From IMG/VR virus record IMGVR_UViG_2802429253_000011: 12,094 bases of DNA. One strand, 5' to 3'. The DNA is from a virus. Lineage: Duplodnaviria > Heunggongvirae > Uroviricota > Caudoviricetes. The notes beneath the pieces were generated by a model. The model was not told the DNA's origin. It searched no databases and saw only the letters and a list, made by a program, of their open reading frames with translations. The position numbers and the translations under genes were made by a program. Position 1 is the first letter of the stretch, and the number at the start of each line of letters is the position of its first letter. Positions 177-12,094 of the stretch are shown here, in pieces.

Positions 177-683
177 TTATCGCCCACGCACTACCAGTGC
201 CTGATCCAACTCCCGATATGCCTCAACCAGTTTCTCCAGAGAAACTCGACTTAAACCGCTGGGATTCGGCAATACCCAAATCTGCGTCGAACCAATGGTC
301 AGCGTTTGTTTCCCCCACTGCACGCCTCGCTGACTGAATCCCTGTTCATACGCCTGCTTACCCAGAATCGCCAACGCCTGCGGCTGATAATTCTCAATTT
401 TTTCAATTAGCTTGCGCCCACCTGCGTGCAATTCCTGCTTTGACACTTCATTAGCCTGCACCGTTGGCCTGTCAACCAGTTTGGTGACGCCACAACGATA
501 ATCCAGCAGATGCTGCGCTTCCTGCGGCTTCAACTGACGGTCGGTAAACCCGGCCTGATAAATCACCTTCCAGAAGCGATTCGCCGGATGGGCAAACGGA
601 AAACCAGACTCCGCGGAAGAAAGACCCGGATTGATGCCACAAAACACCACACGCAATCCTGGCGCAAGAATATCGTCAACCAT
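177..683 (-). CDS. mug: G/U mismatch-specific DNA glycosylase Mug (uracil-DNA glycosylase family 2), 168 aa
   Basis: Translation from the internal Met ([23 protein letters not shown]...[14 protein letters not shown]...LVVRGR) matches E. coli Mug almost residue for residue as recalled. ATG at 681-683 is preceded by AGGAG; stop TAA at 177-179. The track ORF 177..782 adds a 33-aa upstream extension that runs into the tRNA promoter region and is not supported. Confidence 0.9.
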
Positions 684-769
684 ATTAACTCCTGAACAAC
701 ACAACCCGCAGGAAGTATAACGAATTGAAAACACATTGTTTATAAAAACAGCAGCCGCGCGGTAATGGC

Positions 770-798
770 TGGATTGCGACACGGAGTTACTTTATAAT
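770..798 (+). promoter_or_regulatory. Probable sigma70 promoter of the tRNA gene
   Basis: TATAAT at 793-798 followed by a GC-rich discriminator (CCGC) about 10 bp before the mature tRNA 5' end at 809; -35 region is weak. Confidence 0.35.
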
Positions 799-808
799 CC
801 GCTACCAT

Positions 809-884
809 GGCCCCTTAGCTCAGTGGTTAGAGCAGGCGACTCATAATCGCTTGGTCGTTGGTTCAAACCCAACAGGGGCCACCA
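809..884 (+). tRNA. ileX: tRNA-Ile2 (anticodon CAU, lysidine-type; ileX/ileY class), 76 nt including encoded CCA
   Basis: Cloverleaf readable by eye: acceptor GGCCCCT/AGGGGCC, D-arm GCTC-AGTGGTTAG-GAGC, anticodon loop CTCATAA (CAT at 842-844), T-arm GTTGG-TTCAAAC-CCAAC, 3' ACCA. Overall sequence resembles E. coli ileX rather than Met/fMet tRNAs. The position next to mug matches the K-12 ileX locus as recalled. Confidence 0.85.
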
Positions 885-892
885 TATCTATC

Positions 893-929
893 AAGGGGTT
901 ACGTTAACAGCGTGACCCCTTCGTTTTTT
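893..929 (+). terminator. Intrinsic terminator of the tRNA gene
   Basis: Stem AAGGGGTTAC (893-902) / GTGACCCCTT (912-921) with one mismatch, 9-nt loop, followed by CGTTTTTT (922-929). Confidence 0.6.
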
Positions 930-1425: not shown

Positions 1426-1713
1426 TTACCGCCGCAGCCGTTCCGGCTTCTTCCACTGGTAAGTATTTTTCGCGCTCTCCCTCCGTTGTTGAGAACGGCG
1501 ACGGTATGCCAGCAACTCAAGAACTCTGGTTCGTATGTTGCGCATATCCACGCCGTTAAGCTCAATACCGTCACGGCGCATCACCTCAGCCACCACACGC
1601 GCGTAATTTTCAGCGGTGACTGTATCCGGCTGCGCGGCCTGTTCGTCAGCCAACTGGCTGATTCCACCAGCACAGCGGATTAATCGCAGTATTTCAGATT
1701 CGGTCATTATCAT
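1426..1713 (-). CDS. Hypothetical 95-aa protein, translationally coupled to the TerS-like gene
   Basis: Its ATG (1711-1713) overlaps the TGA stop (1710-1712) of the upstream gene in an ATGA arrangement. No family recognised. The basic C-terminal tail may be read-through of non-coding DNA, so it could be a 5' fragment. Confidence 0.4.
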   Translation of the reverse strand: MIMTESEILRLIRCAGGISQLADEQAAQPDTVTAENYARVVAEVMRRDGIELNGVDMRNIRTRVLELLAYRRRSQQRRESAKNTYQWKKPERLRR

Positions 1714-2195
1714 GCCTGTTTTGCGACCTCATTCACTACGTCATTTTTTACCATCCGGCTGATAATCTGATTACACAAATCGTCAATAATTGACTGCACT
1801 CTGTTTACTGCCATCGGTTTAAGCCCGGCATCACGTGCCAGAATATTGGGGAGTTTTGCCAGTTCCTCGCTTACGATTTCCCCCCATATAGCCATCTCTT
1901 TTCGCACATCATCGGCGGGTATGAGTTGCGCCGTTTCCTGTTCGAACCTGAGGCGCTCACGTTCGGACTGATACCAGGCCTTACGGTCATGTGGCTCCAT
2001 TTCTTCCAGTGATGCCGGAACGGGAAGATCAAGAAAACAGGTCAGAATGTCAGTCACCCGATAGAGTTTCAGCTTGTCATGCCCTCCGGCTGGCTGGATG
2101 TTTTTCAACCTTGCCGCCGCAGTCTGACGACATATTCCCGCTATCGCCGCCAGTTGATTAATGTTCAGCATCAGATTTTTCAGTTCTCGATCCAT
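1710..2195 (-). CDS. Terminase small subunit-like protein (lambda Nu1-type N-terminal HTH), about 161 aa
   Basis: N-terminal LNINQLAAIAGICRQTAAARLKNIQPAGGHDKLKLYRVTDIL parallels the lambda Nu1 DNA-binding motif (KKQLADIFGASIRTIQNWQEQGMPV...EVLYDSAAVIKWY). Start chosen at the internal ATG 2193-2195 with GGAG 5 nt upstream; the track ORF runs to 2282 without an RBS. Confidence 0.55.
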   Translation of the reverse strand: MDRELKNLMLNINQLAAIAGICRQTAAARLKNIQPAGGHDKLKLYRVTDILTCFLDLPVPASLEEMEPHDRKAWYQSERERLRFEQETAQLIPADDVRKEMAIWGEIVSEELAKLPNILARDAGLKPMAVNRVQSIIDDLCNQIISRMVKNDVVNEVAKQA

Positions 2196-2348
2196 ACCCG
2201 CTCCAGAATGTTTTAAACATGCATCTTGCGAACAACTTTCAGAAGAGGTCAAAAAATGCGCTATATGTTGAGCATAAAACAAGCAAAATTAACATACTAA
2301 AAATAAAAATACTTAAAATTCAATATCATATAAAGATGATGATGACGA

Positions 2349-2421
2349 ATGAAAATGCAAAAACTAGCCTTTTTCCGCGCCGCTCCCGCCCCGTGGCAGG
2401 CCACCTCACCGGGAGGACCCA
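2349..2421. repeat. Copy A of a 73-bp direct repeat (partner at 5699-5771)
   Basis: 69 of 73 positions identical to copy B, no indels, same orientation. GC-rich core with dyad CTCCCG...CGGGAG. Lies between a terminator and the TerS-like operon. Confidence 0.8.
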
Positions 2422-2466
2422 CCCAAAAAAGGCGACTGTCACTATTGTTTATGCTCCATGAGCGAC

Positions 2467-2488
2467 AAAACCGCCCGCAGGCGGTTTT
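2467..2488 (-). terminator. Intrinsic terminator (bidirectional) after the gpI-like gene
   Basis: Perfect hairpin AAAACCGCC-CGCA-GGCGGTTTT, 18 bp beyond the gpI-like stop (2506-2508), T-runs on both sides. Confidence 0.6.
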
Positions 2489-2505
2489 ACATAAAACGTT
2501 TTGTA

Positions 2506-3177
2506 TCAGCGACCAATCACCACAATCTGGCCGCCATCCCCTTCGTCTGCCGTGCTGATCTCCTGAGAGACCACCCGCGACCCCACGCGCATTTCACCGT
2601 ACAGAACGGGCAGAACATTGCCCTGGGCAACCATGTTATCCAGTGAGGAGAAATAGGTGTTCTGTTTGCCGTTATCTGTACTTGCTGCCGTGGGCGTCCT
2701 GGCTTTCGGTGCCAGCATCTGCGCCACACCACCAAGTACCATACTGGCACCGAGAGAAAACAGGATACCGGTCATACCACCGGCCCCAATGGCTGCCCCC
2801 CATGCTGTAAGGGTGGCTCCGGCGGTAAAGAATGATCCGGCAATGGCGGCTGCTCCCAGGACAATCTGGAATACACCACCTGACTTGGCCCCGGCGACTC
2901 TGGGAACAATATGAATCACAGCGCCATCAGGCAGAGTCTCATGTAACTGCGCCGTTAATCCGGACGTGCTGACATCCTGCCCGGCAATCCGTACCTGATA
3001 CCAGCCGTCGCTCAGTTTCTGACGAAACGCCGGGAGCTGTGTGGCCAGCGCCCGGATGGCTTCGGCCCCCGTTTTCACACGCAGATCGATGCGGCGGCCA
3101 AATCGTTGTAAATCCCCGTAAAGGCAGATGCGTGCCATGCCTGGTGACGCCAGAGGGAGTGTGTGCGTCGCTGCCAT
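2506..3177 (-). CDS. Lambda tail-tip assembly protein I (gpI) homolog, 223 aa
   Basis: Translation MAATHTLPLASPGMARICLYGDLQRFGRRIDLRVKTGAEAIRALATQLPAFRQ... with a Gly/Ala-rich hydrophobic C-terminal half matches lambda gpI as recalled, nearly identical over the full length. ATG at 3175-3177, TGA at 2506-2508. Confidence 0.7.
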   Translation of the reverse strand: MAATHTLPLASPGMARICLYGDLQRFGRRIDLRVKTGAEAIRALATQLPAFRQKLSDGWYQVRIAGQDVSTSGLTAQLHETLPDGAVIHIVPRVAGAKSGGVFQIVLGAAAIAGSFFTAGATLTAWGAAIGAGGMTGILFSLGASMVLGGVAQMLAPKARTPTAASTDNGKQNTYFSSLDNMVAQGNVLPVLYGEMRVGSRVVSQEISTADEGDGGQIVVIGR

Positions 3178-3266
3178 TTGTCGGTATACCTCTCTCGTTT
3201 GCTCAGTTGTTCAGGAATATGGTGCGGCAGCTCGCCGCCCCACGTGTTCAAAGTACCGCCTTGTTG

Positions 3267-5180
3267 TCATGCTCCATTCGATTTCAGCAATCCACGATAA
3301 TCGAGGGCCGCGACACCTGCATCTATGCGCACCTTCCAGGCGACACCATCAACAGTAAAGCCCACCTGCTCCTCAAGATATGGCGTATCCATACCATCAA
3401 GATAAGCGACTTCTATTGTGTCCATCCCCTTAGCTGCGGCTACATACCATTCCTTGCTATTGGCCTTATCAAGACGTGGCTCAACAATTACTTCTGCCAT
3501 ATCTTTCACCACGTTAATGATGCCGGGGTTCTGATTGATAGTGCCCTCATCACCAACCGGAAAGACTGATGACGATGACAGAATGGCGCGACGCGCGGCA
3601 GATTCCAGCGCGGCAGGGACCAGAACAAAAGCAGGGGTAATATTCAGTGAGTCGCCGTTAGCATCCTCCTGGAGGCGCATCAGCTTACGGGCTTCATCAA
3701 GCCCCACCATGTCCATATCCTTCGCAATAAGATTTTTATGATCGGCATGGAATAACGCTTTACCATCCGTAAACTTGCCGTTGCTGGTTAACAGGAGATA
3801 AACCAGATTGCCAACTGTTCTGGCGGCTGCGCGTCCCATCGCCATGGGGATTGTAGTTAACTGGGTCAGGTCATCGTTGATAATGGCCTGACGGGTAACG
3901 GAAAAAATATTCCCGTACGTGGCCAGCGCAATAGGTACACCTTTATCGCTGGTGGTGATGTATTTATATTCCGCACCTTCCGGTACTTTATCCAGCTTTG
4001 AAAAACCATTCAGACCAACGCGCTTTGCTTCATGAAAGTTTGAAAGCGAACCGGTACGCGTCCATTTCTGGAACGTTTCGCCGCTGTCCTGCCAGCCTTT
4101 CAGTACAGATTTTTCAGCCCCACCAGCCAGAATATGAGAAAAATCACTGCTGCTGTGTGTAAAAGCCGCATTAACAACCTGCGAGCGATTAATAAAACCA
4201 CTCACAGTGATACCACGATCAACCAGTGATGCCTGGGCCATTTCAAAAAGGCTCATCATCGCGTAAGGGTTGCCTCGTTCAGGGCGTTCATACCCAAGAC
4301 GGGAATAAAGCCCCTGACGAATTGCATCACCTGTTATGTTTCCGTTTCCGGCATAGATATGAGGCGGGGTATTTTTATTGGATGGCGTGGACTCGCGCCC
4401 CAGCTCGTTCAACAGCTTTTCACGGGCCATTTCCGGTGTACATGATGCATCTTCCAGACACGCCATTTTGATCCCGTCGTAACGACTGCCGAACAGGCTA
4501 AACACTTCACTTATTCCATTGATGCGTTTCTGTTCATTACCAGCAATATTTGCCGCTCCCTGTGGCGGTGTAATCATTCCTTTAATGGTTTCCGGCATAT
4601 GTAAAAAATCTCCTGTACGTTTCGATTCAATTCGCGCCATTGCTCTGACGGATGGCAACAATTCATCAGCAAAACCGTGCTTAAGGCATTCTTTCCCATC
4701 CATCCAGGTTTCATCCTCCAGCATGGCGGTAATTTCCTGTGCTGATTTGCCCGTTTTTCTGGCATAAGCAGGGATTAACACGGTTTCCACCTTATCCAGC
4801 AAATCAGCATAATCACGCATATCGCCAGCATTTCCGCCAGAGATCCCCCACGGTTTATGGATCATCATCATGGCGTTCTCCGGCATCACTACACGATCGC
4901 CAGCCATTGCGACCACCGAAGCCATTGAAGCCGCAACACCATCGATATAAACCGTAATGTCTGCCGGATGATTCCGTAGCAGGTTATAGATGGCGATGCC
5001 TTCAAACACATCACCACCTGGTGAATGGATCCTCAGATTGATATGTGAAACATCGCCAAGGGCTTTCAGGTCTTCCGCGAACTGCTTTGCAGTAACACCG
5101 AAGCCGCCAATCTCCTCATAGATAGATATATCCGCCGCTCCGCGAACATCCGCCGCCTTAATGGTGTACCAGCGATTCAT
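3267..5180 (-). CDS. Fusion of prohead protease (ClpP/S14-like) and HK97-fold major capsid protein, 637 aa
   Basis: N-terminus carries ClpP-like motifs (INLRIHSPGGDVFEGIAIYNLL, DGVAASMASVVAMAGD, MMMIHKPWG); the C-terminal ~400 aa has the composition and length of an HK97-family capsid protein. Start ATG 5178-5180 overlaps the upstream stop (TAATG). Confidence 0.8.
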   Translation of the reverse strand: MNRWYTIKAADVRGAADISIYEEIGGFGVTAKQFAEDLKALGDVSHINLRIHSPGGDVFEGIAIYNLLRNHPADITVYIDGVAASMASVVAMAGDRVVMPENAMMMIHKPWGISGGNAGDMRDYADLLDKVETVLIPAYARKTGKSAQEITAMLEDETWMDGKECLKHGFADELLPSVRAMARIESKRTGDFLHMPETIKGMITPPQGAANIAGNEQKRINGISEVFSLFGSRYDGIKMACLEDASCTPEMAREKLLNELGRESTPSNKNTPPHIYAGNGNITGDAIRQGLYSRLGYERPERGNPYAMMSLFEMAQASLVDRGITVSGFINRSQVVNAAFTHSSSDFSHILAGGAEKSVLKGWQDSGETFQKWTRTGSLSNFHEAKRVGLNGFSKLDKVPEGAEYKYITTSDKGVPIALATYGNIFSVTRQAIINDDLTQLTTIPMAMGRAAARTVGNLVYLLLTSNGKFTDGKALFHADHKNLIAKDMDMVGLDEARKLMRLQEDANGDSLNITPAFVLVPAALESAARRAILSSSSVFPVGDEGTINQNPGIINVVKDMAEVIVEPRLDKANSKEWYVAAAKGMDTIEVAYLDGMDTPYLEEQVGFTVDGVAWKVRIDAGVAALDYRGLLKSNGA

Positions 5181-5386
5181 TATTCCCCCACCGATGCAAA
5201 ACCATTCTGATTAAGCCAGGTGTTTACGGCATGTCTGACAATCTGCGCCACACCTGGTAATGGTTTGTCAGGATGATGATTTATATGGTCGATCCTGTAC
5301 TGCTTAAGGCGCATAACGGTCTGCGCATCCAGATGAACGGAACCACCCCTGATATCGCCCGTGTTCAGGTCATTAATACAACTCAC
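5180..5386 (-). CDS. Hypothetical 68-aa protein, first gene of the capsid operon
   Basis: GTG start at 5384-5386 preceded by a strong RBS (AAGAGGAAG); stop overlaps the capsid start. Function unknown. Confidence 0.5.
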   Translation of the reverse strand: MSCINDLNTGDIRGGSVHLDAQTVMRLKQYRIDHINHHPDKPLPGVAQIVRHAVNTWLNQNGFASVGE

Positions 5387-5511: not shown

Positions 5512-5698
5512 ATAAATATCCCGCCATCTGAACACGTTTTGACACAGGCAACTCCACCTGGCAGGTGAAAAACAGATTTATTTATATATTTCAATTAATT
5601 GCAAACTGGTCTAATGACAGGGAGAAAAAAATATTGTACAGGTGAAAACAGAAATAACTTTTAATTATCAATAAATTATCACACATGCTGCCGCCGCC

Positions 5699-5771
5699 AT
5701 GAAAATGCAAAAACCAGCCTTTTTCCGCGCCGCTCCCGCCCCGTGGCAGGTCACTACACCGGGAGGACCCA
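5699..5771. repeat. Copy B of the 73-bp direct repeat (partner at 2349-2421)
   Basis: Differs from copy A only at 5715, 5751, 5755 and 5756. Abuts the terminator at 5772-5795. Confidence 0.8.
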
Positions 5772-5795
5772 TAAAAAAGCCGGATTGCTCCGGCT
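5772..5795 (-). terminator. Intrinsic terminator ending the primase/origin transcription unit
   Basis: Stem AGCCGGA (5778-5784) / TCCGGCT (5789-5795), loop TTGC; on the minus strand it is followed by six U (complement of A5773-A5778). Confidence 0.6.
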
Positions 5796-5931
5796 TCTGT
5801 CACTCGTTGCTTAAAACGGTATGTTATCCCCGTACGGATCATCATTCCCCGCCTGTTGTTTTGGTGTGCTTCGCTGTCATAGGCTTTATCTCACAGCAGT
5901 AAATTAAAATTTTTGCGTTTTAACCCTTCAC

Positions 5932-6154
5932 CTGTTCACCTTTTGATATTTTCTCTTTTAATTCATAATGTTAAGGGGTGAACAGTTTCACAAAAACTAT
6001 TCACCAACTGTTCACCACTGTTCACCCTTGAAGCTCAATAAACAATCAAAAAGGTGAACAGTGAATAGTTTGGTGAACAGTTCATAAATAACTGTTCACC
6101 CTATAATATACTGATATAAAAGATATTTATGACAGGGTGAACAGTGGTGAACAG
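5932..6154. repeat. Iteron array, candidate replication origin (P4 ori/crr-like)
   Basis: Eleven copies of CTGTTCACC or its complement GGTGAACAG (two of them variants, CTATTCACC and GTGAATAG) at 5932, 5977, 5997, 6008, 6018, 6053, 6061, 6072, 6092, 6136 and 6146, in both orientations, interleaved with AT-rich tracts (5941-5974, 6101-6134). Ends 20 bp from the primase stop. TGTTCACC is the type I iteron bound by P4 alpha protein. Confidence 0.75.
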
Positions 6155-6173
6155 TTATTCCATAAGTTTAATT

Positions 6174-7985
6174 TTAGCTATCGTCATTAGTGACCGATAC
6201 ACATGATGGCATCCAGTCTTCTGATTCCTCCGTCAGTGTCACGTTTGAACGCAAACCGTGCTTCGTTTTCCGTTTCATATACTCCCTGCCATATTCCGCC
6301 ATTGCCCCCGGCATATCTTTACCGAAGCGCGTCAGTGTTACAGGTTTACCAAACCCATGTGCCCTCATATAAGCCAGATAGGCATGATAGAGATACCTGC
6401 GTGGGCTGAATGGCACAATTTCAGCATTACCCACTAACAGGCCATCACACATTACCGACGCCATGAGATAGCCGCAGAAGTCCACCAGCGAATCCCCCTC
6501 TCGCTTTATCGCCAGTGCTTCTTCAGATTTCTGCTGCTCATATAACAGGCGTCTGGCTTCGTCCTGGTCAGCAAACCGTGTAAGCAGATGGCGAATCACT
6601 ACCGCCAGCTCACCTTCTATTTTTTCCGCCAGCATTGGATCGCGTTCGTTCTCCGGTACAACTTCCGAAAAATTGAATATCACCCGACGACGTGAGATCC
6701 CCCCGCTGCGGTCACTGAATGACATGGCGTTATTGTTAACCGCCAGCACTACTGCCGGAATACGCGTTGAGTAGGGGGCTTTGTGTTTCGGGTCAATTGC
6801 CACCTTGTCACCGCCTGTAATAGCCTTAATCCCTGCCCCATCACCAGCGTAGCGGGTCATATCCGGCATGATAATCAGCGAAAAGCCAACCACTAACGCG
6901 CGTTCCCTTGCATCTTCCAGCGCCTTCATGCTTGCCGATACTGTGTTGGCCTTACCCGCCAGCATGGTGCAAATCTCCGCCATCACGCTTTTACCACTTC
7001 CCCCTGGACCTGTTACCTCAATGAATAACTGCCAGTCGTACCGGTTCGCCAGCACCATGAATAATGCAGCCAGTACGCGATCCGCCTTGCGGTCATTCTC
7101 AGCCACCGAACGGCGTAACCACTTCCAGAAATTCGGCGCATGTGTTGCCAGCGTTTCCCCCTCTGCTGGTGGGCTGAAAGGTAATTCACTGGCAATTAAC
7201 AACCAGTCGTTTTTGTTATGCTCCCGAAAATTACCTGTTCTGGTATCAAATACCCCGTTACTGAATCCAATCAGGTTACGGGCTGTATTCCCCATAACAG
7301 GCAAACTTAACTTCATGGTATCGACCGCCGATTTAATGGCGTTCTGCGAATAGCTGATCTCCGCATCAATGAAAATCTGTGCCATAGCTCGCTGTAATTC
7401 TTTATCCTGTACTGGCTCCCATACAACGCCGTTGTAATGGTGAACAGTATCAGAGTCGGCATGAATCGCCAGTTCACCGCCATAATGTGCCAGGAGAACT
7501 TCGCCGCGTTGACTTGCTCCCATCTGGTTAAGCGCCAGTGATGAAGCGTTATCGTCTTTTACCCGCTCTTTTTTCTTTACAGGCAGTTCAACTACCTTTT
7601 TCTTTTCCGCCTGCTCTGCCCGTTCACGTTCCAGATATTCGCGCCAGTTCTCCCGTTTCTGGCTGTGCATTCCTTCAGGATAATAATCAGCATCCCTGAC
7701 ACCGGCCGCTGCCAGTTTCTGCCCGATGGTATTAACAAGCCCCGGACGCAATAACCCCGCCTGATAGAGACGCACACGATAGCGTCCGTCCGGTACGATT
7801 TGCAGGTTGTCCAGTTCGGCAAGTTGTTGCTCTCCAAGCCAGACAGGAGGCACGTTATCGCCAGCCAGTCGCCCGTCCTGTTCCTGCCACTGCTTCGCAT
7901 GTGCCCACGCATCACTACCCGCAAAAATGATGACTTCCGTCATTTTGTCACGTGGCTGGTGTTTTAAATTTGGCGCTTTTTTCAT
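6174..7985 (-). CDS. P4 alpha-type primase/helicase (N-terminal primase region, SF3 helicase with Walker A GPGGSGKS)
   Basis: Long ORF with VTGPGGSGKS, followed by residues typical of the phage/plasmid primase P4-family C-terminal domain. Start assigned to ATG 7983-7985, which overlaps the upstream stop (ATGA); track start is a GTG at 8000. Iterons lie directly downstream. Confidence 0.8.
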   Translation of the reverse strand: MKKAPNLKHQPRDKMTEVIIFAGSDAWAHAKQWQEQDGRLAGDNVPPVWLGEQQLAELDNLQIVPDGRYRVRLYQAGLLRPGLVNTIGQKLAAAGVRDADYYPEGMHSQKRENWREYLERERAEQAEKKKVVELPVKKKERVKDDNASSLALNQMGASQRGEVLLAHYGGELAIHADSDTVHHYNGVVWEPVQDKELQRAMAQIFIDAEISYSQNAIKSAVDTMKLSLPVMGNTARNLIGFSNGVFDTRTGNFREHNKNDWLLIASELPFSPPAEGETLATHAPNFWKWLRRSVAENDRKADRVLAALFMVLANRYDWQLFIEVTGPGGSGKSVMAEICTMLAGKANTVSASMKALEDARERALVVGFSLIIMPDMTRYAGDGAGIKAITGGDKVAIDPKHKAPYSTRIPAVVLAVNNNAMSFSDRSGGISRRRVIFNFSEVVPENERDPMLAEKIEGELAVVIRHLLTRFADQDEARRLLYEQQKSEEALAIKREGDSLVDFCGYLMASVMCDGLLVGNAEIVPFSPRRYLYHAYLAYMRAHGFGKPVTLTRFGKDMPGAMAEYGREYMKRKTKHGLRSNVTLTEESEDWMPSCVSVTNDDS

Positions 7986-8281
7986 TTCTGCTCTCTCCAC
8001 GCGGCAATCATGTTTTTCAGTTCCTGTAGTTTTTTATCCACATTCACACGTGACACATGGTTATTTCTGGAAAGCGGGATTTCCCGCCTGAATCTGCTAA
8101 TAAAGATCTCCACGTTCAGCGAACTATGAAATGAATAGCCATCACGAATAAAATACACACGGTCAAACATTATCGATTTTACTGTTACTCTGTTGCCGTT
8201 CTTATCCCGATAAATAGCGCCGGGGATAATTTTGGGATGTGCATAACCGCTGGCAGTCAAGCCAGATAAATACGTTCTCAT
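7982..8281 (-). CDS. Hypothetical 99-aa protein, coupled to the primase
   Basis: ATG 8279-8281; stop overlaps the primase start. No family recognised. Confidence 0.5.
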   Translation of the reverse strand: MRTYLSGLTASGYAHPKIIPGAIYRDKNGNRVTVKSIMFDRVYFIRDGYSFHSSLNVEIFISRFRREIPLSRNNHVSRVNVDKKLQELKNMIAAWREQK

Positions 8282-8287
8282 GATTAT

Positions 8288-8608
8288 TTATCCCCGATTT
8301 GAATCAGTATTCGCTTTCTTTATGGCATTTAATGCATCTGTGGCATTTTCAATGGTGCACCGTAACGAAATATCAAAATGTCCAAGCATTGCCAGTAACA
8401 AACCGATATTACCCATATCAATGCGCATGGCCTTTTCGTCATAGTCCTCATTTTCTGACGCATGCCACATCAGGCTACCAATTGACGCAACGGCCATTGA
8501 TATATTGTCAGTCGCCACATCCGCAGCGGAATAAACCTTTTTAGCAATATCATGCTCACAGTTAAAATGCGGATTAATCAGGTACTGGTAATTTGACATA
8601 TCAGGCAT
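8288..8608 (-). CDS. Hypothetical 106-aa protein
   Basis: ATG 8606-8608 overlaps the upstream stop (ATGCCTGA); RBS GGGGG. Acidic protein, no family recognised. Confidence 0.5.
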   Translation of the reverse strand: MPDMSNYQYLINPHFNCEHDIAKKVYSAADVATDNISMAVASIGSLMWHASENEDYDEKAMRIDMGNIGLLLAMLGHFDISLRCTIENATDALNAIKKANTDSNRG

Positions 8609-8804
8609 GGCACACCCCCTGACGAATACGGGCGGCGAATACCATCACGCAGCCAGCCGGGGATTGCTGGCGTGCTTCCTGTTCGCTGGTGGCCACGATG
8701 GTAATCACACGCGGTTTTGCGGCGCTCAGGGCGATAAAACGCCAGGCGAATTTATTCAGGTTGTGCGAATCCCGCCCTTGCGGGTGTATGGTATGATTTC
8801 TCAT
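8601..8804 (-). CDS. Small Icd-like protein (P4-family host cell division inhibitor-like), 67 aa
   Basis: MRNHTIHPQGRDSHNLNKFAWRFIALSAAKPRVITIVATSEQEARQQSPAGCVMVFAARIRQGVCHA; ATG 8802-8804 with GAGG 6 nt upstream. The track merges it into a 334-aa ORF whose upstream part is antisense to real plus-strand genes. Family call is from memory of Icd-like annotations. Confidence 0.5.
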   Translation of the reverse strand: MRNHTIHPQGRDSHNLNKFAWRFIALSAAKPRVITIVATSEQEARQQSPAGCVMVFAARIRQGVCHA

Positions 8805-8842
8805 AGCTACCTCGATACTCTCGTTATCGTTGGTGGTTAGAA

Positions 8843-8887
8843 GCCCTGCGAGTGGTAACGACACTTGCGGGGCTTTGTTTTTTGTTG
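8843..8887 (+). terminator. Plus-strand intrinsic terminator or attenuator in the divergent control region
   Basis: 12-bp stem (8843-8854 / 8862-8873) with two G-U wobble pairs that only pair in plus-strand RNA, 7-nt loop, then UUUGUUUUUUGUUG. Confidence 0.5.
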
Positions 8888-8899
8888 CACTTACTGTTA

Positions 8900-8950
8900 A
8901 TGTACGTACGTAATATTGATGATAATAGGAGTTACGTACGTACATGTCAA
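8900..8950 (-). promoter_or_regulatory. Leftward promoter (TTGACA-17-TATTAT) overlapped by a pair of 14-bp perfect inverted repeats (operator)
   Basis: On the minus strand, -35 TTGACA is at 8950-8945 and -10 TATTAT at 8927-8922 with a 17-bp spacer. ATGTACGTACGTAA (8900-8913) and TTACGTACGTACAT (8932-8945) are exact reverse complements and flank the RBS and start codon of the RHH gene. Confidence 0.6.
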
Positions 8951-9135
8951 CATTAAAGCGGGATAAATCACCACGCGGCGAGGGATGGTCGCCGACATTC
9001 CAGATACGAATTAGCAAAGAACTACGCCAGCAAGTAAACGAGGCAGCAACCGCCGATGGCCTAACCCTCGGCAATTGGTTTAAAGAATTAGCTCGTGCCG
9101 AACTAAAGCGACGCGGCATTGAACCTAAAGGCTGA
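8944..9135 (+). CDS. Ribbon-helix-helix (Arc/CopG-like) DNA-binding protein, 63 aa
   Basis: FQIRISKELRQQVNEAATADGLTLGNWFKELARAEL has the strand-helix-helix pattern of RHH regulators. AGGAG at 8927-8931; start codon sits inside the right operator arm. Confidence 0.55.
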   Translation: MSTLKRDKSPRGEGWSPTFQIRISKELRQQVNEAATADGLTLGNWFKELARAELKRRGIEPKG

Positions 9136-9138
9136 TGT

Positions 9139-9264
9139 ATGACTGAAAAGCAGACCGATAACAAACTTTCTCTACCAGAGAATAAACCAGCAGGCTTCTT
9201 ACCAAGAAAAATCCTTGATGAGATCAAACGCCGCCAGCGGCGCAAGGCCAAAGAGCAGGAGTAA
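9139..9264 (+). CDS. Possible 41-aa basic peptide, or 5' part of an interrupted gene
   Basis: ATG 4 nt after the RHH stop; ends at TAA 9262-9264; same frame as the next ORF. Confidence 0.2.
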   Translation: MTEKQTDNKLSLPENKPAGFLPRKILDEIKRRQRRKAKEQE

Positions 9265-9321
9265 CCATCACCAGCGCCGTGGTGCGGTGAACTGTGGCGC
9301 ACAGGGTTACAGGTATCTACG

Positions 9322-9501
9322 ATGACTGACAAATCATTAAAGAAATTATCCTCATCCAAGAAAAAACAACGCAAAAATGCGGTAAACGAACATGAACCGG
9401 AGAGATTCGCACCATGTGCGTTTATCCTTGAGAAGTACCTTAAAGAGTATTCTAGGAAAATACGCTCATTGCAGGCATGGCAGCGAATCGAGCCAGACTG
9501 A
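9322..9501 (+). CDS. Possible 59-aa Lys-rich protein, or 3' part of an interrupted gene
   Basis: ATG 9322-9324 to TGA 9499-9501; in frame with 9139-9264 and no other stops between them; followed by a terminator. Confidence 0.2.
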   Translation: MTDKSLKKLSSSKKKQRKNAVNEHEPERFAPCAFILEKYLKEYSRKIRSLQAWQRIEPD

Positions 9502-9566
9502 TAGCATTGCCCACCAGCCAACAACCTGGTATTCTGGATATGCTCAAGTTTAGTGTTATGCCACTG

Positions 9567-9594
9567 GCGGCCCTCTGCGGTCGCCTTTGTTTTA
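9567..9594 (+). terminator. Intrinsic terminator of the rightward small operon
   Basis: Stem GGCGGCC (9567-9573) / GGTCGCC (9579-9585) with one G-U pair, 5-nt loop, then UUUGUUUUAUG. Confidence 0.5.
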
Positions 9595-9611
9595 TGTGCC
9601 ATCACTCCCCC

Positions 9612-9821
9612 TTACACCGTCTGCGTTCTGCGAGTGGATGCAAGATAAGCATCGAGATCAGTGCGCATATACAGCACTTTGCGCCCCAGCTTATGGAAAG
9701 GGATTTTTACCTTGCCAGTACAGGCCCAGTTCGCCAGCGTTTGATTGTTAACGCCAAGGTAGGCAGCAGCTTCAGCACGTGTAAGGCGGTCAGTTGATAA
9801 ATCAGATTTCTTTAAATTCAT
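9612..9821 (-). CDS. AlpA/Xis-family helix-turn-helix DNA-binding protein, about 69 aa
   Basis: LTRAEAAAYLGVNNQTLANWACTGKVKIPFHKLGRKVLYMRTDLDAYL fits the small AlpA/excisionase-type HTH family. ATG 9819-9821 chosen; an alternative GTG at 9830 gives 72 aa. Confidence 0.7.
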   Translation of the reverse strand: MNLKKSDLSTDRLTRAEAAAYLGVNNQTLANWACTGKVKIPFHKLGRKVLYMRTDLDAYLASTRRTQTV

Positions 9822-9882
9822 ATCTATCACCGTGTACTTCTAAGTAACAACGGTGATAAATATCAATCAATGGGTATTTTGT

Positions 9883-9968
9883 TTTTAGCCCAATAGCCAG
9901 TTGCTGTGGGGAGGTTACCAGTTATTTAGCCTTAATAGCCAGCTATTAAGATACACTAGCCAGCTATT
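9883..9968. promoter_or_regulatory. Operator-like repeats upstream of the AlpA-like gene
   Basis: Two ~24-bp direct repeats (9883-9907, 9925-9948) each containing the ATAGCCAG motif; the second holds the perfect palindrome AATAGC-CA-GCTATT (9934-9947); a third copy TAGCCAGCTATT is at 9957-9968. Confidence 0.45.
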
Positions 9969-10689
9969 GGGGGTGAACAAGTTCAAACGAAGAATATTTA
10001 TCAGGTCTTGGTGGTTGTGCTCCTGATTCTTTAATCCATTTATCCAGAGTGTTTTTACTTACTTTCCCATGATAGTAAACAGAAAGCTCGTTCAATAAAC
10101 CTGTTTTACTGGCTTTAGGGTACTTTTCCCATGTTAGTTTAATTACGTGCATAACTTCATTGTAATAATGATTTCTTGGTTTGCGCGCTTTTTCTTTCTG
10201 TGATAAGGATAAAGCATCTTTTATTTTTTTATCTTTTTCATGGTTCGATATAATTTCTTCAAAAAAGTCATTAAGCAATAACTCAACACCAACCCTAGTA
10301 AGTTTGTCTGCGTGATTACGCATTCCGACATGGTACAATGCAACTGCTGAATTTAAAGTATCGACAACCTGACAAGATAGTTTACTATCAAATATTAAAA
10401 AACCACATGAATCCATTCTTATAGCTAATTCAATAGGATATTGCTCGATTTCTCTTAATTCTAAACCATAACACAAAAGAAATTCTCTTGTTGGATACTT
10501 TGATTTATAAAAATAATCTCTTATATCATCAATCAAGCGTTTTATAGCCTCTATGGTGGAGTTTTTCGGGGATAAAGATACAGGAACGTTTAAAACTGAA
10601 GAGTCTCGCCCACCAGTAATTAAATCATTCATAACCGAATAAATAATATATTGTTTGACCGATATATTGTTATCACCCATATATGTCAT
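9964..10689 (-). CDS. Hypothetical protein (238-241 aa), AT-rich, translationally coupled to the integrase
   Basis: ORF noticeably more AT-rich than its neighbours by eye. Candidate ATG at 10678-10680 overlaps the integrase stop (ATGGGTGA); track start is at 10689. No motif recognised (no Walker A, no transmembrane segment). Confidence 0.55.
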   Translation of the reverse strand: MTYMGDNNISVKQYIIYSVMNDLITGGRDSSVLNVPVSLSPKNSTIEAIKRLIDDIRDYFYKSKYPTREFLLCYGLELREIEQYPIELAIRMDSCGFLIFDSKLSCQVVDTLNSAVALYHVGMRNHADKLTRVGVELLLNDFFEEIISNHEKDKKIKDALSLSQKEKARKPRNHYYNEVMHVIKLTWEKYPKASKTGLLNELSVYYHGKVSKNTLDKWIKESGAQPPRPDKYSSFELVHPQ

Positions 10690-12094
10690 TCTTTTCTTGT
10701 ACTATAGCAAATAGTAAACGACGTTTTTCATCATCACTCATGCCCTCCAGTGCGGAAAGTAATTGCGCATCGATAGATTTTTTACTCTCCACCAGCCCGG
10801 CATGTTCCAGAATTGCCCGTTCTATCCGTGATGCTGGCTCCAGCAGTTCATCAGCACCGAAATGTAAATACCCCTGCGTTACGTCGGCACTTCGCATAGT
10901 GCGGTGATTCATCAGGCGCTTGAGGATGTAATTACCCACGCCCACCAGCTCAGCAACCGTTCCGAACGTCCGGCGTGCGTCGTGCCACTTAAACGGGACA
11001 GGGAAGAGCATTTCATCGTTCGCCTCAGGAATGGTAGCCGCGCTTATCCGGTCTATGATGTGCCGTGTCTCCTGAATCACTCCCTTCACGCCAGGAAACA
11101 CCAGCACATCATCAGCAGCTTTGTTTTTTAGCCTGCGAAGAAACATTTTCCGCAACGTATCAGTGATCGGCAGTTCAAGCGGATCCCCGTTTTTCGTGGT
11201 GTCTATCCAGAAAAAGCGACCGCCCATATTCACGCGATCCCACGTAAGGCCAAAAACTTCTGATTTCCTCAGTCCGGTAAACAGTGCCATTTCCACGGCA
11301 TCACATACCGTAACAGCTATATCATCCCTTTCCTGTTCGCCCTGGTCGCGCACAGCAGCTACAGCAGCAAACCAGCGGGGAAAATCATGCAGGCGGATAC
11401 GTTCCGTTTTTCTTACCGTTCCGTGCCACTGGCGCTTGGTGCTCAGTACCAGAGTCGGCGGATCCGGTAAAAGAGTATTACCCGCATCATCACGGTAATG
11501 ATCATGCGCAAACCGACACACAGCACGTAGCGCACGCGCCCATAAATCGGCCTGTGCCTTGCTTCCTGTACCAACCCCAGCCCGTAACGTGGTTTTATCA
11601 GCACCGAACCATACAGCCCCATCAGTGATGGCCTTATGCCGTTGTTCCACCCGTTCGCGGGAAATACTGGCGAGGGTATGGGCCATCCAGTCACCGGAAT
11701 AATTCTGTAATATGCTGCGGTACTGTTTTTCTGTGGAGGGTTTCAGGCGGTGGCCACGATTTTTTACGTAGGCGTCAATCGCCTCACTCAGCGTTATCAT
11801 GGCCTTGTTGTTAGTGCGCTTTGCTATGTTCGGATTTATCCCCGTTGTGGCGACTTCGCCAAGGAGTTCCATAGCTTTAGCCCTGGCATTATCCACGCTC
11901 AGATCAGGAAAACGCCCCAGCGTTGCACGAATAAATTTTCCGTTACGCTTACGGGAAATGCAGAAACTTTTCACACCAGACGAACCTACACGGACACGCA
12001 GCCCGTTAACCTCCGTATCACCATATTCGACCTGTCCATGTTCCGGCGTTGGCAGTTCTGCAATTTTTACTTTAGAGAATCTGAATAATTTCAC
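10673..12094 (-). CDS. Tyrosine recombinase/integrase (P4-type with N-terminal arm-binding DUF4102-like domain), 5' end at window edge
   Basis: N-terminus GLRVRVGSSGVKSFCISRKRNGKFIRATLGRFPDLSVDNARAKAMELL is typical of P4-family integrase arm domains; C-terminal HDARRT and downstream Tyr region fit the catalytic domain. The only in-window start is a GTG at 12092-12094, so the true start may lie beyond the window. Confidence 0.8.
   Translation of the reverse strand: MKLFRFSKVKIAELPTPEHGQVEYGDTEVNGLRVRVGSSGVKSFCISRKRNGKFIRATLGRFPDLSVDNARAKAMELLGEVATTGINPNIAKRTNNKAMITLSEAIDAYVKNRGHRLKPSTEKQYRSILQNYSGDWMAHTLASISRERVEQRHKAITDGAVWFGADKTTLRAGVGTGSKAQADLWARALRAVCRFAHDHYRDDAGNTLLPDPPTLVLSTKRQWHGTVRKTERIRLHDFPRWFAAVAAVRDQGEQERDDIAVTVCDAVEMALFTGLRKSEVFGLTWDRVNMGGRFFWIDTTKNGDPLELPITDTLRKMFLRRLKNKAADDVLVFPGVKGVIQETRHIIDRISAATIPEANDEMLFPVPFKWHDARRTFGTVAELVGVGNYILKRLMNHRTMRSADVTQGYLHFGADELLEPASRIERAILEHAGLVESKKSIDAQLLSALEGMSDDEKRRLLFAIVQEKNDIYG

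Follow-up and report, generated by a model that had tools for sequence, protein, structure and literature searches.

Proteobacterial phage-inducible chromosomal islands (PICIs) share a core set composed of an integrase, an AlpA-type regulator, a primase-replicase, a capsid-morphogenesis gene and a gene for a small terminase subunit (TerS), with no other structural genes (PMC10085698). A capsid gene was reported in 21 of 29 reference Gram-negative PICIs, and PICIs residing in tRNA-Ile2 and 'bearing a CLP_protease gene' were described in the same study (PMC10111431). According to the authors of SatelliteFinder, the PICI capsid gene is thought to modify hijacked capsids (PMC10085698). Packaging redirection by PICIs has been explained by a satellite that retains the cutting site of its helper phage and alters the recognition site together with the protein that reads it (PMC6739421; PMC9026076). 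The present analysis concerns a 12,094-nucleotide stretch of DNA, IMG/VR record IMGVR_UViG_2802429253_000011, referred to below as the window. With a probability of roughly 0.8 for the explanation as a whole (PICI identity, helper-matched late module and the proposed course of events), the element it contains is a classical Gram-negative PICI of Escherichia coli at tRNA-Ile2, a sibling of EcCICFT073 with a late module that fits lambdoid helpers having heads of the mEp460/cdtI/Gifsy type, not lambda or phi80.

As a gene set, this element was already known: it carries the defining set of Proteobacterial PICIs, and its genotype appears in published satellite catalogues. An earlier sequence-only reading of the window had proposed a hijacking strategy unlike known systems, a claim of novelty that does not hold, since the published core set consists of the same genes (PMC10085698) and CLP_protease-bearing PICIs in tRNA-Ile2 have been catalogued (PMC10111431). 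The descriptive gain lies in an EcCICFT073-type backbone with a complete module swap, in which a ClpP-capsid fusion replaces the E and D genes, a DUF1441 TerS replaces Rpp, and a cos of the mEp460/cdtI type replaces the lambda cos. This module swap goes together with a change to another family of helper heads and packaging systems. A further gain is the finding that copies of the fused capsid gene from eight genera of enterobacteria group in a conserved clade restricted to satellites.

The likeness to EcCICFT073 is evident in the gene order, which in both elements runs from int through a helix-turn-helix (HTH) regulator, a divergent YlcI-like gene, an Icd-like gene, a DUF4222 gene, the primase gene, the replication origin, a small open reading frame (ORF) overlapping the capsid gene, cos, and a DNA-binding packaging protein to a last gene. 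Full-length comparison of the primases gave 49% identity, and the last gene products are 74% identical. In addition, both elements have two cos sites (for EcCICFT073, PMC6092414; PMC6739421), with cosQ/cosN as in the helper and a different cosB (PMC6739421). The differences are concentrated in the late module. EcCICFT073 carries a lambda E-type capsid gene and a D-type decoration gene, whereas the island carries a ClpP-scaffold-capsid fusion of NCBIfam family NF045540; the position of RppA is taken by a DUF1441 TerS homologue; and the lambda cosN of EcCICFT073, present as two inverted copies flanking rppA, contrasts with direct repeats that flank the capsid cassette here. Integrase and integration site are not shared, and the helpers lambda and phi80 of EcCICFT073 are replaced by likely helpers of the mEp460/cdtI type. 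The tRNA-Ile2 CLP_protease PICIs resemble the island in integration target, CLP_protease late gene and four-zone layout (integration, Bro, replication, late); they were reported without alpA (PMC10111431), whereas the window copy has an HTH_17 gene in the alpA position.

The window begins with E. coli chromosome and continues into the island, nearly all of whose genes lie on the minus strand. The core gene mug (177-782, minus strand) lies 5' of the integration target, tRNA-Ile2 (ileX, CAT anticodon; 809-884, plus strand), which was detected by ARAGORN and Rfam and is annotated as tRNA-Ile in E. coli strain GF4 and in RefSeq relatives. The island-derived 3' half of the tRNA begins near position 839. 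A copy at the same locus in GF4, 97.9% identical, defines an island of 11.2 kb between mug-ileX and nfeF; a direct repeat of 65 nt, corresponding to the 3' half of the tRNA, marks its two ends. In the relative L001, this att repeat occupies 12682-12746 and 23900-23964 and corresponds to window positions 839-903; attR lies approximately 200 bp past the end of the window, which is short of only that stretch. A GGATACCTATAGGATACC repeat near attL (929-973), which belongs to direct repeat family D3 in L001 and has a second copy near attR outside the window, is predicted to be an arm-type binding site, probably of the integrase. The window copy is chromosomal, between mug and nfeF, and is thus not itself a helper-embedded PICI of the kind described previously (PMC10111431), unlike a sibling island found inside the terL gene of a helper prophage (L007, discussed below).

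Integration and replication functions follow the PICI pattern. A tyrosine integrase gene (10673-12094, minus strand; Pfam Arm-DNA-bind_3 and Phage_integrase) serves an att-bounded, site-specific integration; it is intact in the window and frameshifted in GF4. Read from this far end, the order is integrase, a 241-aa ORF, the HTH_17 gene, the divergent YlcI/YnfO-like gene, the Icd-like gene, a 106-aa ORF, the DUF4222 gene, the primase gene, iterons and the late module. Downstream of int, where PICIs carry an AlpA/MerR/Stl-type regulator, lies the gene of a 72-aa AlpA-type HTH_17 protein (9612-9830, minus strand; Pfam E=1.4e-11), identified by its family match and also matching excisionase/regulator PHROGs. 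The primase/D5-type helicase gene (pri-rep; 6174-8000, minus strand) matches Pfam D5_N, DUF5906 and Pox_D5 as well as TIGR01613, the P4-family primase. Directly downstream of it, GGTGAACAG iterons in direct and inverted orientation occupy 5930-6169 (repeat families D2, D4, D6, D10, I1, I2, I5 and I6). This iteron field is the probable replication origin, and its position agrees with the ori location reported for PICIs (PMC6092414), so that the island possesses its own primase-replicase with a putative origin directly downstream.

The late module contains a capsid gene and terS; portal, large terminase subunit (TerL) and lysis genes are absent, and a captured tail-assembly gene I is present in addition. 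The latter is atypical for a PICI and absent from most relatives. Family matches of the late-module genes are far beyond chance. The capsid gene (3267-5180, minus strand) encodes a ClpP-like prohead protease, a scaffold-linker and an HK97-type major capsid protein in one chain of 637 aa, assigned by Pfam, PHROG and NCBIfam to this type and belonging to a satellite lineage. Pfam matches to CLP_protease (aa 31-175, E=1.7e-35) and Phage_capsid_4 (aa 335-634, E=3.3e-54) bear out the protease-capsid fusion that the sequence-only reading had recognized in this intact ORF. The protein scores 900 bits against a curated cutoff of 475 for NF045540, 'ClpP-like prohead protease/major capsid protein fusion protein', and the protease motifs GVAASMA (Ser85) and MIHKP (His108) are intact, which places it within that family. 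Its identity to the helper-phage orthologues (proteins of mEp460, PhiR40, cdtI and Stx phages) is 57-58%.

That the capsid ORF might be a decayed remnant in related strains had been named as a check, and the relatives show no decay. The gene was found in 184 of 5426 complete E. coli genomes (at least 80% coverage, 93-99% nucleotide identity), five full-length copies that were listed are all annotated as an intact gene, and the ratio of nonsynonymous to synonymous substitution rates (dN/dS) of 0.06-0.09 among relatives indicates strong purifying selection. These data also bear on the view that the whole locus is the decayed remnant of a lambdoid prophage head module and not a mobile satellite. 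Phage-derived genes occur here without the rest of the phage, and a gene K fragment (K') and a terS vestige show that deletions took place in the past. Such a remnant would nevertheless hardly be expected to have precise att repeats, an intact integrase and its own primase with an iteron origin, nor would the same architecture be expected at three integration sites with three different integrases, or its genes in 184 genomes under selection; this view is considered highly improbable.

Within the fusion gene, a patch of approximately 90 nt (window ~4339-4428, fusion aa ~250-285) is 92-95% identical to prophage-type fusions in ~1400 E. coli genomes, and outside this patch the gene is 50-70% identical to the prophage-type genes. 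The patch encodes ...REKLLNELGRESTPSNKNTPPHIYAGNGN... and could represent a maturation-site region or a gene-conversion tract. In addition, a prophage-type fusion gene was present in four of five island-bearing genomes sampled, against a background of ~27%, a sample too small to count.

The absence of portal and TerL, also claimed from the sequence, stands. The only ORFs longer than 300 aa in the window are those of the integrase, the primase and the fusion, and tblastn with the mEp460 portal and TerL gave no match to the window or to its E. coli relatives L001 and L006. Neither the window nor the att-bounded E. coli copies have space for either gene. A search beyond the window, which had likewise been advised, gave the same answer, as the att-bounded 11.2-kb element of GF4 ends with the core gene nfeF straight after the integrase. 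An island without portal, TerL and tail genes must borrow these, and the satellite status and borrowing suggested previously are therefore upheld by the fact that the island does not encode them.

These absences further distinguish the island from capsid-forming PICIs (cf-PICIs) such as EcCIEDL933. Both have a PICI backbone and capsid genes in lineages apart from their phage homologues, but cf-PICIs also encode portal, connectors, HNH protein and TerL and steal tails only, whereas all those genes are absent here, with neither ORFs nor tblastn matches for them in the window or in att-bounded relatives. Degeneration of a cf-PICI through loss of portal, TerL, HNH and connector genes would account for the presence of capsid protein, protease and TerS, which cf-PICIs encode as well (bioRxiv 10.1101/2022.09.08.507074). 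This origin is scarcely credible, given that genes for portal, TerL, HNH protein and connectors have left no trace in any of 11 loci of the satellite clade described below, and that both the arrangement capsid, cos, terS and the fusion of ClpP with the capsid gene fit the helper family and not the proteobacterial cf-PICI order of capsid, protease, portal, connectors, hnh, terS, terL. The island is not P4-like either: Pfam and PHROG scans revealed no sid, psu or delta families, there is no C4 or isrK RNA (an Rfam scan for P4-type CI, C4 and isrK immunity RNAs returned nothing but the tRNA), and the cos is of the lambdoid mEp460/cdtI type, not the P2 type.

The match to a specific helper family is clearest in the cos sites. 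The first, cos1 (2200-2428, minus strand), contains a cosQ-like/cosN core (2367-2396) within an 80-nt repeat (2349-2428), and a diverged cosB (~2200-2366) leads into terS. The second, cos2 (5540-5797, minus strand), comprises a terminator-like hairpin (5772-5797), a cosQ/cosN core (5717-5746), a cdtI-type cosB (~5566-5716) and a terS vestige (~5540-5565). Its 80-nt repeat (5699-5778) is 91% identical to that of cos1, and the two copies, separated by 3350 bp and facing the same way, enclose the capsid cassette. They differ in cosB type, cos1 being mEp460-like and cos2 cdtI-like. At cos2, the initial ~8 codons of a cdtI-type terS come after the cosB, and the terminator comes after these codons. 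This site resembles what remains of a phage cos-terS junction after capture. L001, L006 and L007, the E. coli relatives examined, conserve both copies, and a search of the 2.5 kb upstream of the fusion gene in satellites of other genera revealed no repeated cos.

Upstream of terS, the cos1 region is 83-86% identical to the cos of mEp460, phi458 and PhiR40/47/55. In an alignment with the genome ends of mEp460 and cdtI, the first letters of the cdtI record, GGGCGGGAGCG, fall within a block that the island shares without any difference; because the cdtI record begins there, the cohesive-end site was placed at this block. The cosQ/cosN of each cos copy is shared with phages of the mEp460 and cdtI types, as expected of a PICI that matches its helper; cosQ/cosN is identical to the helper's and cosB has diverged. 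A search with the lambda cosN (GGGCGGCGACCT) gave a single match with one mismatch, inside the K' fragment and at chance level; the real cos is of the cdtI/mEp460 type. In the proposed helper phages, the gene order is cos, DUF1441 terS, gpA-type terL, a W-like gene, portal, ClpP-capsid fusion, DUF2190 and tail.

A natural satellite-helper pair is provided by L007 (L007:1-23975). Here, an island with a different integrase and a late module 98.4% identical to that of the window resides inside the terL of a mEp460-type prophage, which encodes a DUF1441 TerS, gpA, portal and the fusion protein. Between the two partners, the cosQ-like/cosN blocks agree except for a few single-base differences, cosB has diverged and the identity of the TerS proteins is 67%; at cos2, the island has the same cosN variant as the helper around it. 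The cos/TerS pattern of the island, as read from sequence, follows the published logic of PICI redirection, and packaging redirection by the island is well supported by inference.

The protein that would read the diverged cosB is encoded by terS (1710-2195, minus strand), the gene of a 161-aa DUF1441 small-terminase homologue (Pfam DUF1441 E=3e-35; PHROG 141 'terminase small subunit' E=1e-56). The long ORF extends over 1710-2282 (minus strand), with the ATG at 2195 as the likely true start. The product is 63-70% identical to TerS of mEp460-, phi458- and PhiR40-type phages, and its gene has a dN/dS of 0.08. It had previously been called a Nu1-like TerS; the assignment as a small-terminase homologue is confirmed through DUF1441 and PHROG 141, but the protein is not a member of Pfam Phage_Nu1 and is Nu1-like in a functional sense only. 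Its central region is highly conserved with helper TerS, and the DNA-binding region and the C-terminal tail differ. The 161-aa island protein ends in KNDVVNEVAKQA, which is not acidic, whereas the 164-aa helper TerS has the acidic tail ADDEEELQQEE.

Two modes of action can be considered for this protein. It may redirect helper TerL as a close homologue of helper TerS, in the manner of pac-type S. aureus pathogenicity islands (SaPIs) with their own TerS. These differ in using headful packaging, whereas cos packaging applies here; no Ppi-like inhibitor was identified in the island, and its TerS tail is unlike the helper's, which makes TerL binding uncertain. Alternatively, the DUF1441 protein may act like Rpp, pairing with helper TerS, blocking helper cosB recognition and steering a mixed complex to cos1, with TerL acquired through helper TerS. 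This mode has a substantial chance of being correct, if somewhat short of even, and as it concerns a single step it is compatible with the overall explanation. The gene occupies the slot held by rpp in EcCICFT073, between cos1, which it follows directly downstream, and the conserved last gene, and it adjoins a cosB diverged from the helper's. The pattern of a central region shared with helper TerS and a different DNA-binding region and tail also favors it, and RppC has a TerS-like DNA-binding domain (PMC6739421). Furthermore, the same slot holds DUF1441 proteins reduced to the N-terminal DNA-binding part in satellites of Kluyvera (85 aa, L048:9772-10029) and Yersinia (74 aa, L011:12077-12301).

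Sequence comparison speaks against an Rpp-like mode. No similarity to RppA or RppC was found (BLASTP against RppA gave E=0.68), and a PDB sequence search with the island TerS gave no match to the deposited RppC chains, to Nu1 or to another terminase. RppA has only weak N-terminal HTH/Phage_Nu1 matches, the island protein is a DUF1441 protein, and by sequence it falls outside the Rpp family. Moreover, the island protein is full length (161 aa against 164 aa in the helper), and Buttiauxella and Phytobacter satellites keep in this slot a full-length DUF1441 protein with an acidic tail like that of phage TerS. The short Kluyvera and Yersinia proteins, as a separate observation, resemble an Rpp-type solution derived from a different TerS family.

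The course of events proposed on this basis is as follows. Upon induction by a helper, the island would excise and replicate from its own primase and iteron origin, as suggested by homology. The island cosQ/cosN being identical to the helper's, helper TerL would be expected to cut the island at cos. Specificity would derive from the island DUF1441 TerS acting on the diverged cosB of cos1, either by substituting for helper TerS, as SaPI TerS does, or by forming a mixed complex with it, as Rpp does. The cdtI-type cosB of cos2 could permit direct recognition by the terminase of a cdtI-type helper. Portal, TerL, connectors and tails, which the island lacks, would be supplied by the helper. The fusion protein, whose gene is paired with that of its upstream partner p68, would constitute the capsid-morphogenesis component of the PICI; most likely it would assemble together with the helper capsid protein, or take its place, on the helper portal, and it may change capsid size. 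This is the least certain step.

Several observations point to a retained satellite function of the fusion gene. Its genomic context was surveyed in 80 loci, one genome per species, with neighbours scored by tblastn using E. coli-derived queries, so that distant portal or TerL types could be missed. Homologues at least 71% identical had a satellite context in 11 of the 11 satellite loci scored, window included, none of which has an adjacent portal or TerL. The genera concerned are Escherichia, Trabulsiella, Kluyvera, Phytobacter, Yersinia, Buttiauxella, Moellerella and Rahnella. Most of these homologues have an integrase gene, a primase gene or both, of PICI type, at their flanks, and those of Kluyvera and Rahnella are helper-embedded. 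Homologues with at most 59% identity, in loci with enough upstream sequence, have the portal directly upstream in nearly all cases, usually preceded by TerS and TerL. The satellite clade received neighbor-joining bootstrap support of 100/100 and is marked by a linker deletion of ~24 aa after residue 210 and a 7-aa insertion at 538-544, which, judged by its position after the predicted spine helix, probably lies in the capsid A-domain. Conservation of the capsid domain is 82% within the clade against 69% among the phage copies sampled.

The hallmark of the satellite cassette is p68, a 68-aa protein (5180-5386, minus strand; PHROG 4934) translationally coupled to the fusion gene. Of the 11 satellite loci scored, window included, 10 have a p68 homologue directly upstream of the fusion gene, the exception being a 5'-truncated fusion gene (L013); none of the prophage loci scored has one. 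The homologues measure 59-80 aa (L010:9268-9510, L048:7525-7716, L011:9825-10004, L012:9792-10004, L067:9825-10004 and L087:9825-10004) and share the pattern TVHIDAET...IVR..V..W. No significant match to p68 was obtained in Pfam or NCBIfam. An AlphaFold2 (AF2) model from the single sequence shows two helices after a short extended segment, with a mean confidence score (pLDDT) of 62, too low for a fold search; on the basis of the conserved pattern and this weak model, a ribbon-helix-helix DNA-binding fold is possible. Two other candidates, a phage W-like head-tail adaptor and a relative of the 68-aa ORF in the same position of CFT073, showed no similarity to p68.

The satellite-only clade with its shared indels, the purifying selection and the p68 linkage together favor long-term retention, and the fusion clade argues against recent or passive capture and for a retained satellite function. 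The opposite position is that the fusion gene, a late gene captured from a helper, is not essential for the spread of the satellite and is a passenger or back-up useful at most where islands interrupt helper head genes. Late-gene capture followed by loss was proposed by the Williams laboratory (PMC10111431), the same late module sits in the helper-embedded island of L007, and the K'-I insert and the cdtI-type cos-terS vestige show capture to be ongoing. A mere passenger nonetheless fits poorly with a fusion that reaches just ~57% identity to any of the phage copies in the collection of phages, with a satellite-only clade spanning eight genera with shared indels, with strong purifying selection, and with linkage to the satellite-specific p68 in all copies but the truncated one. 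A passenger role is rated as fairly unlikely.

Part of the published record supports that position and at the same time weighs against the explanation preferred here, in which the fusion serves the satellite. Deletion of the EcCICFT073 capsid gene c1499, or of its decoration gene, left interference with lambda in place (PMC6092414), and, citing that study, PICI capsid genes were described as dispensable for helper-assisted transfer (PMC10111431). The heads into which EcCICFT073 concatemers are packaged have the size of phage heads (PMC6092414; PMC6739421). Further points of this kind arise from the island itself. With two direct cos sites at a distance of 3.35 kb, efficient termination of packaging at both would produce sub-genomic cuts. 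Direct recruitment of TerL by the island TerS is doubtful, because the protein has no acidic tail and related satellites carry the DNA-binding part alone. Finally, the late zone is dynamic, as seen in the K'-I capture and the terS vestige at cos2, and part of its content may be passenger DNA.

For the capsid fusion itself, precedents exist in other satellites. The SaPIbov5 protein Ccm co-assembles with the helper capsid protein and alters capsid shape (PMC8569155), and small heads are made by PmCI172, which also has a capsid homologue (PMC6092414). Like these, the island encodes a homologue of the helper major capsid protein, has no portal or TerL and uses cos-type packaging. It differs in that its homologue retains the protease and scaffold parts. 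Small capsids were linked to the homologues in those satellites; in EcCICFT073, the closer relative, capsid size does not change. In the reading preferred here, the fusion, with protease, scaffold and shell in one chain, would co-assemble with the helper capsid protein or replace it on the helper portal, a tentative proposal to which we give somewhat less than an even chance. A stronger version, in which the satellite protease-scaffold-capsid lineage and p68 build the shell of the transducing particle alone on a stolen helper portal, perhaps as a smaller shell for a single 11-kb genome, appears unlikely. The genome length of 11.2 kb is compatible both with four copies in a helper head of 42-47 kb and with one copy in a T=4-like head, and capsid size is not inferable from length.

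Were such a satellite-built shell to exist, this PICI group would represent a 'half capsid-forming' intermediate between classical PICIs and cf-PICIs, and the two cosB types would allow packaging by two helper terminase specificities. The satellite-only clade also sharpens the question of why most Gram-negative PICIs keep a capsid gene despite the EcCICFT073 deletion result (PMC6092414) and the description of these genes in PMC10111431. The fusion family offers a clean experimental test case for this question.

Between the fusion gene and cos1, a terminator hairpin is interrupted by a segment from the tail module of a lambdoid prophage (2451-3243, minus strand). It consists of the last 66 nt of gene K (K', 3178-3243, minus strand) and the complete tail-assembly gene I (2506-3177, minus strand; Pfam Lambda_tail_I). 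The 55 nt downstream of gene I include a GC-rich hairpin followed by a T run, a probable terminator. At the nucleotide level, the K'-I segment is 94-96% identical to the K-I genes that prophages resident in thousands of genomes carry; it is absent from L001 and L006 and present in L007. At least 80% of the late-module query, for which the insert is needed, was covered in 23 genomes, which are those carrying K'-I. More diverged gene-I-like genes were observed downstream of the TerS-like gene in Kluyvera (L048:10016-10615), Rahnella (L087:12442-13050) and probably Yersinia (L011:12401-13024), and acquisition of gene I by these satellites seems to be recurrent. Tail-assembly interference by Tai was considered as an explanation for the gpI gene and set aside, the Tai paper containing no link to gpI.

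The last island gene, p95 (1426-1707, minus strand; PHROG 1561, without an assigned function), has a start that overlaps the terS stop. Its product is 74% identical to that of the last ORF of EcCICFT073 (L009:15374-15655), the gene downstream of rppA, although the neighbouring packaging gene was swapped; its C-terminus is basic. The dN/dS of 0.28-0.35 is above that of its neighbours. No Pfam or NCBIfam family was assigned to p95, and a relationship to TerL was rejected, as it shows no similarity to helper TerL. A PADLOC scan of gpI and the ORFs without an assigned function found no defence family, a marginal BrxA match of p95 (E=0.008) being disregarded.

Between origin and cos2, the relatives L001, L006 and L007 as well as EcCICFT073 carry a hypothetical gene and an ssb gene, for single-stranded DNA-binding protein (SSB), a pair that is missing in the window (5778-6174, compared with L001:16800-17792); the EcCICFT073 order accordingly includes SSB after the primase. 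Next to the integrase, an AT-rich 241-aa ORF (9964-10689, minus strand; GC 33%) has no assigned family, with no significant Pfam family and no NCBIfam, PHROG or PADLOC match, and may be accessory or defence cargo. The early/regulatory zone as a whole (7982-9830, mostly minus strand) has the gene order of EcCICFT073. Family scans identified in it the DUF4222 gene (7982-8281, minus strand), the Icd-like gene (8601-8840, minus strand) and the divergent YlcI/YnfO-like gene (8944-9135, plus strand); the 106-aa ORF (8288-8608, minus strand) gave nothing significant in Pfam or NCBIfam and is without a family. Just upstream of the YlcI/YnfO-like gene, a perfect 14-nt inverted repeat (ATGTACGTACGTAA / TTACGTACGTACAT; window 8900-8945) was observed, a candidate that could serve as an operator of the regulatory region.

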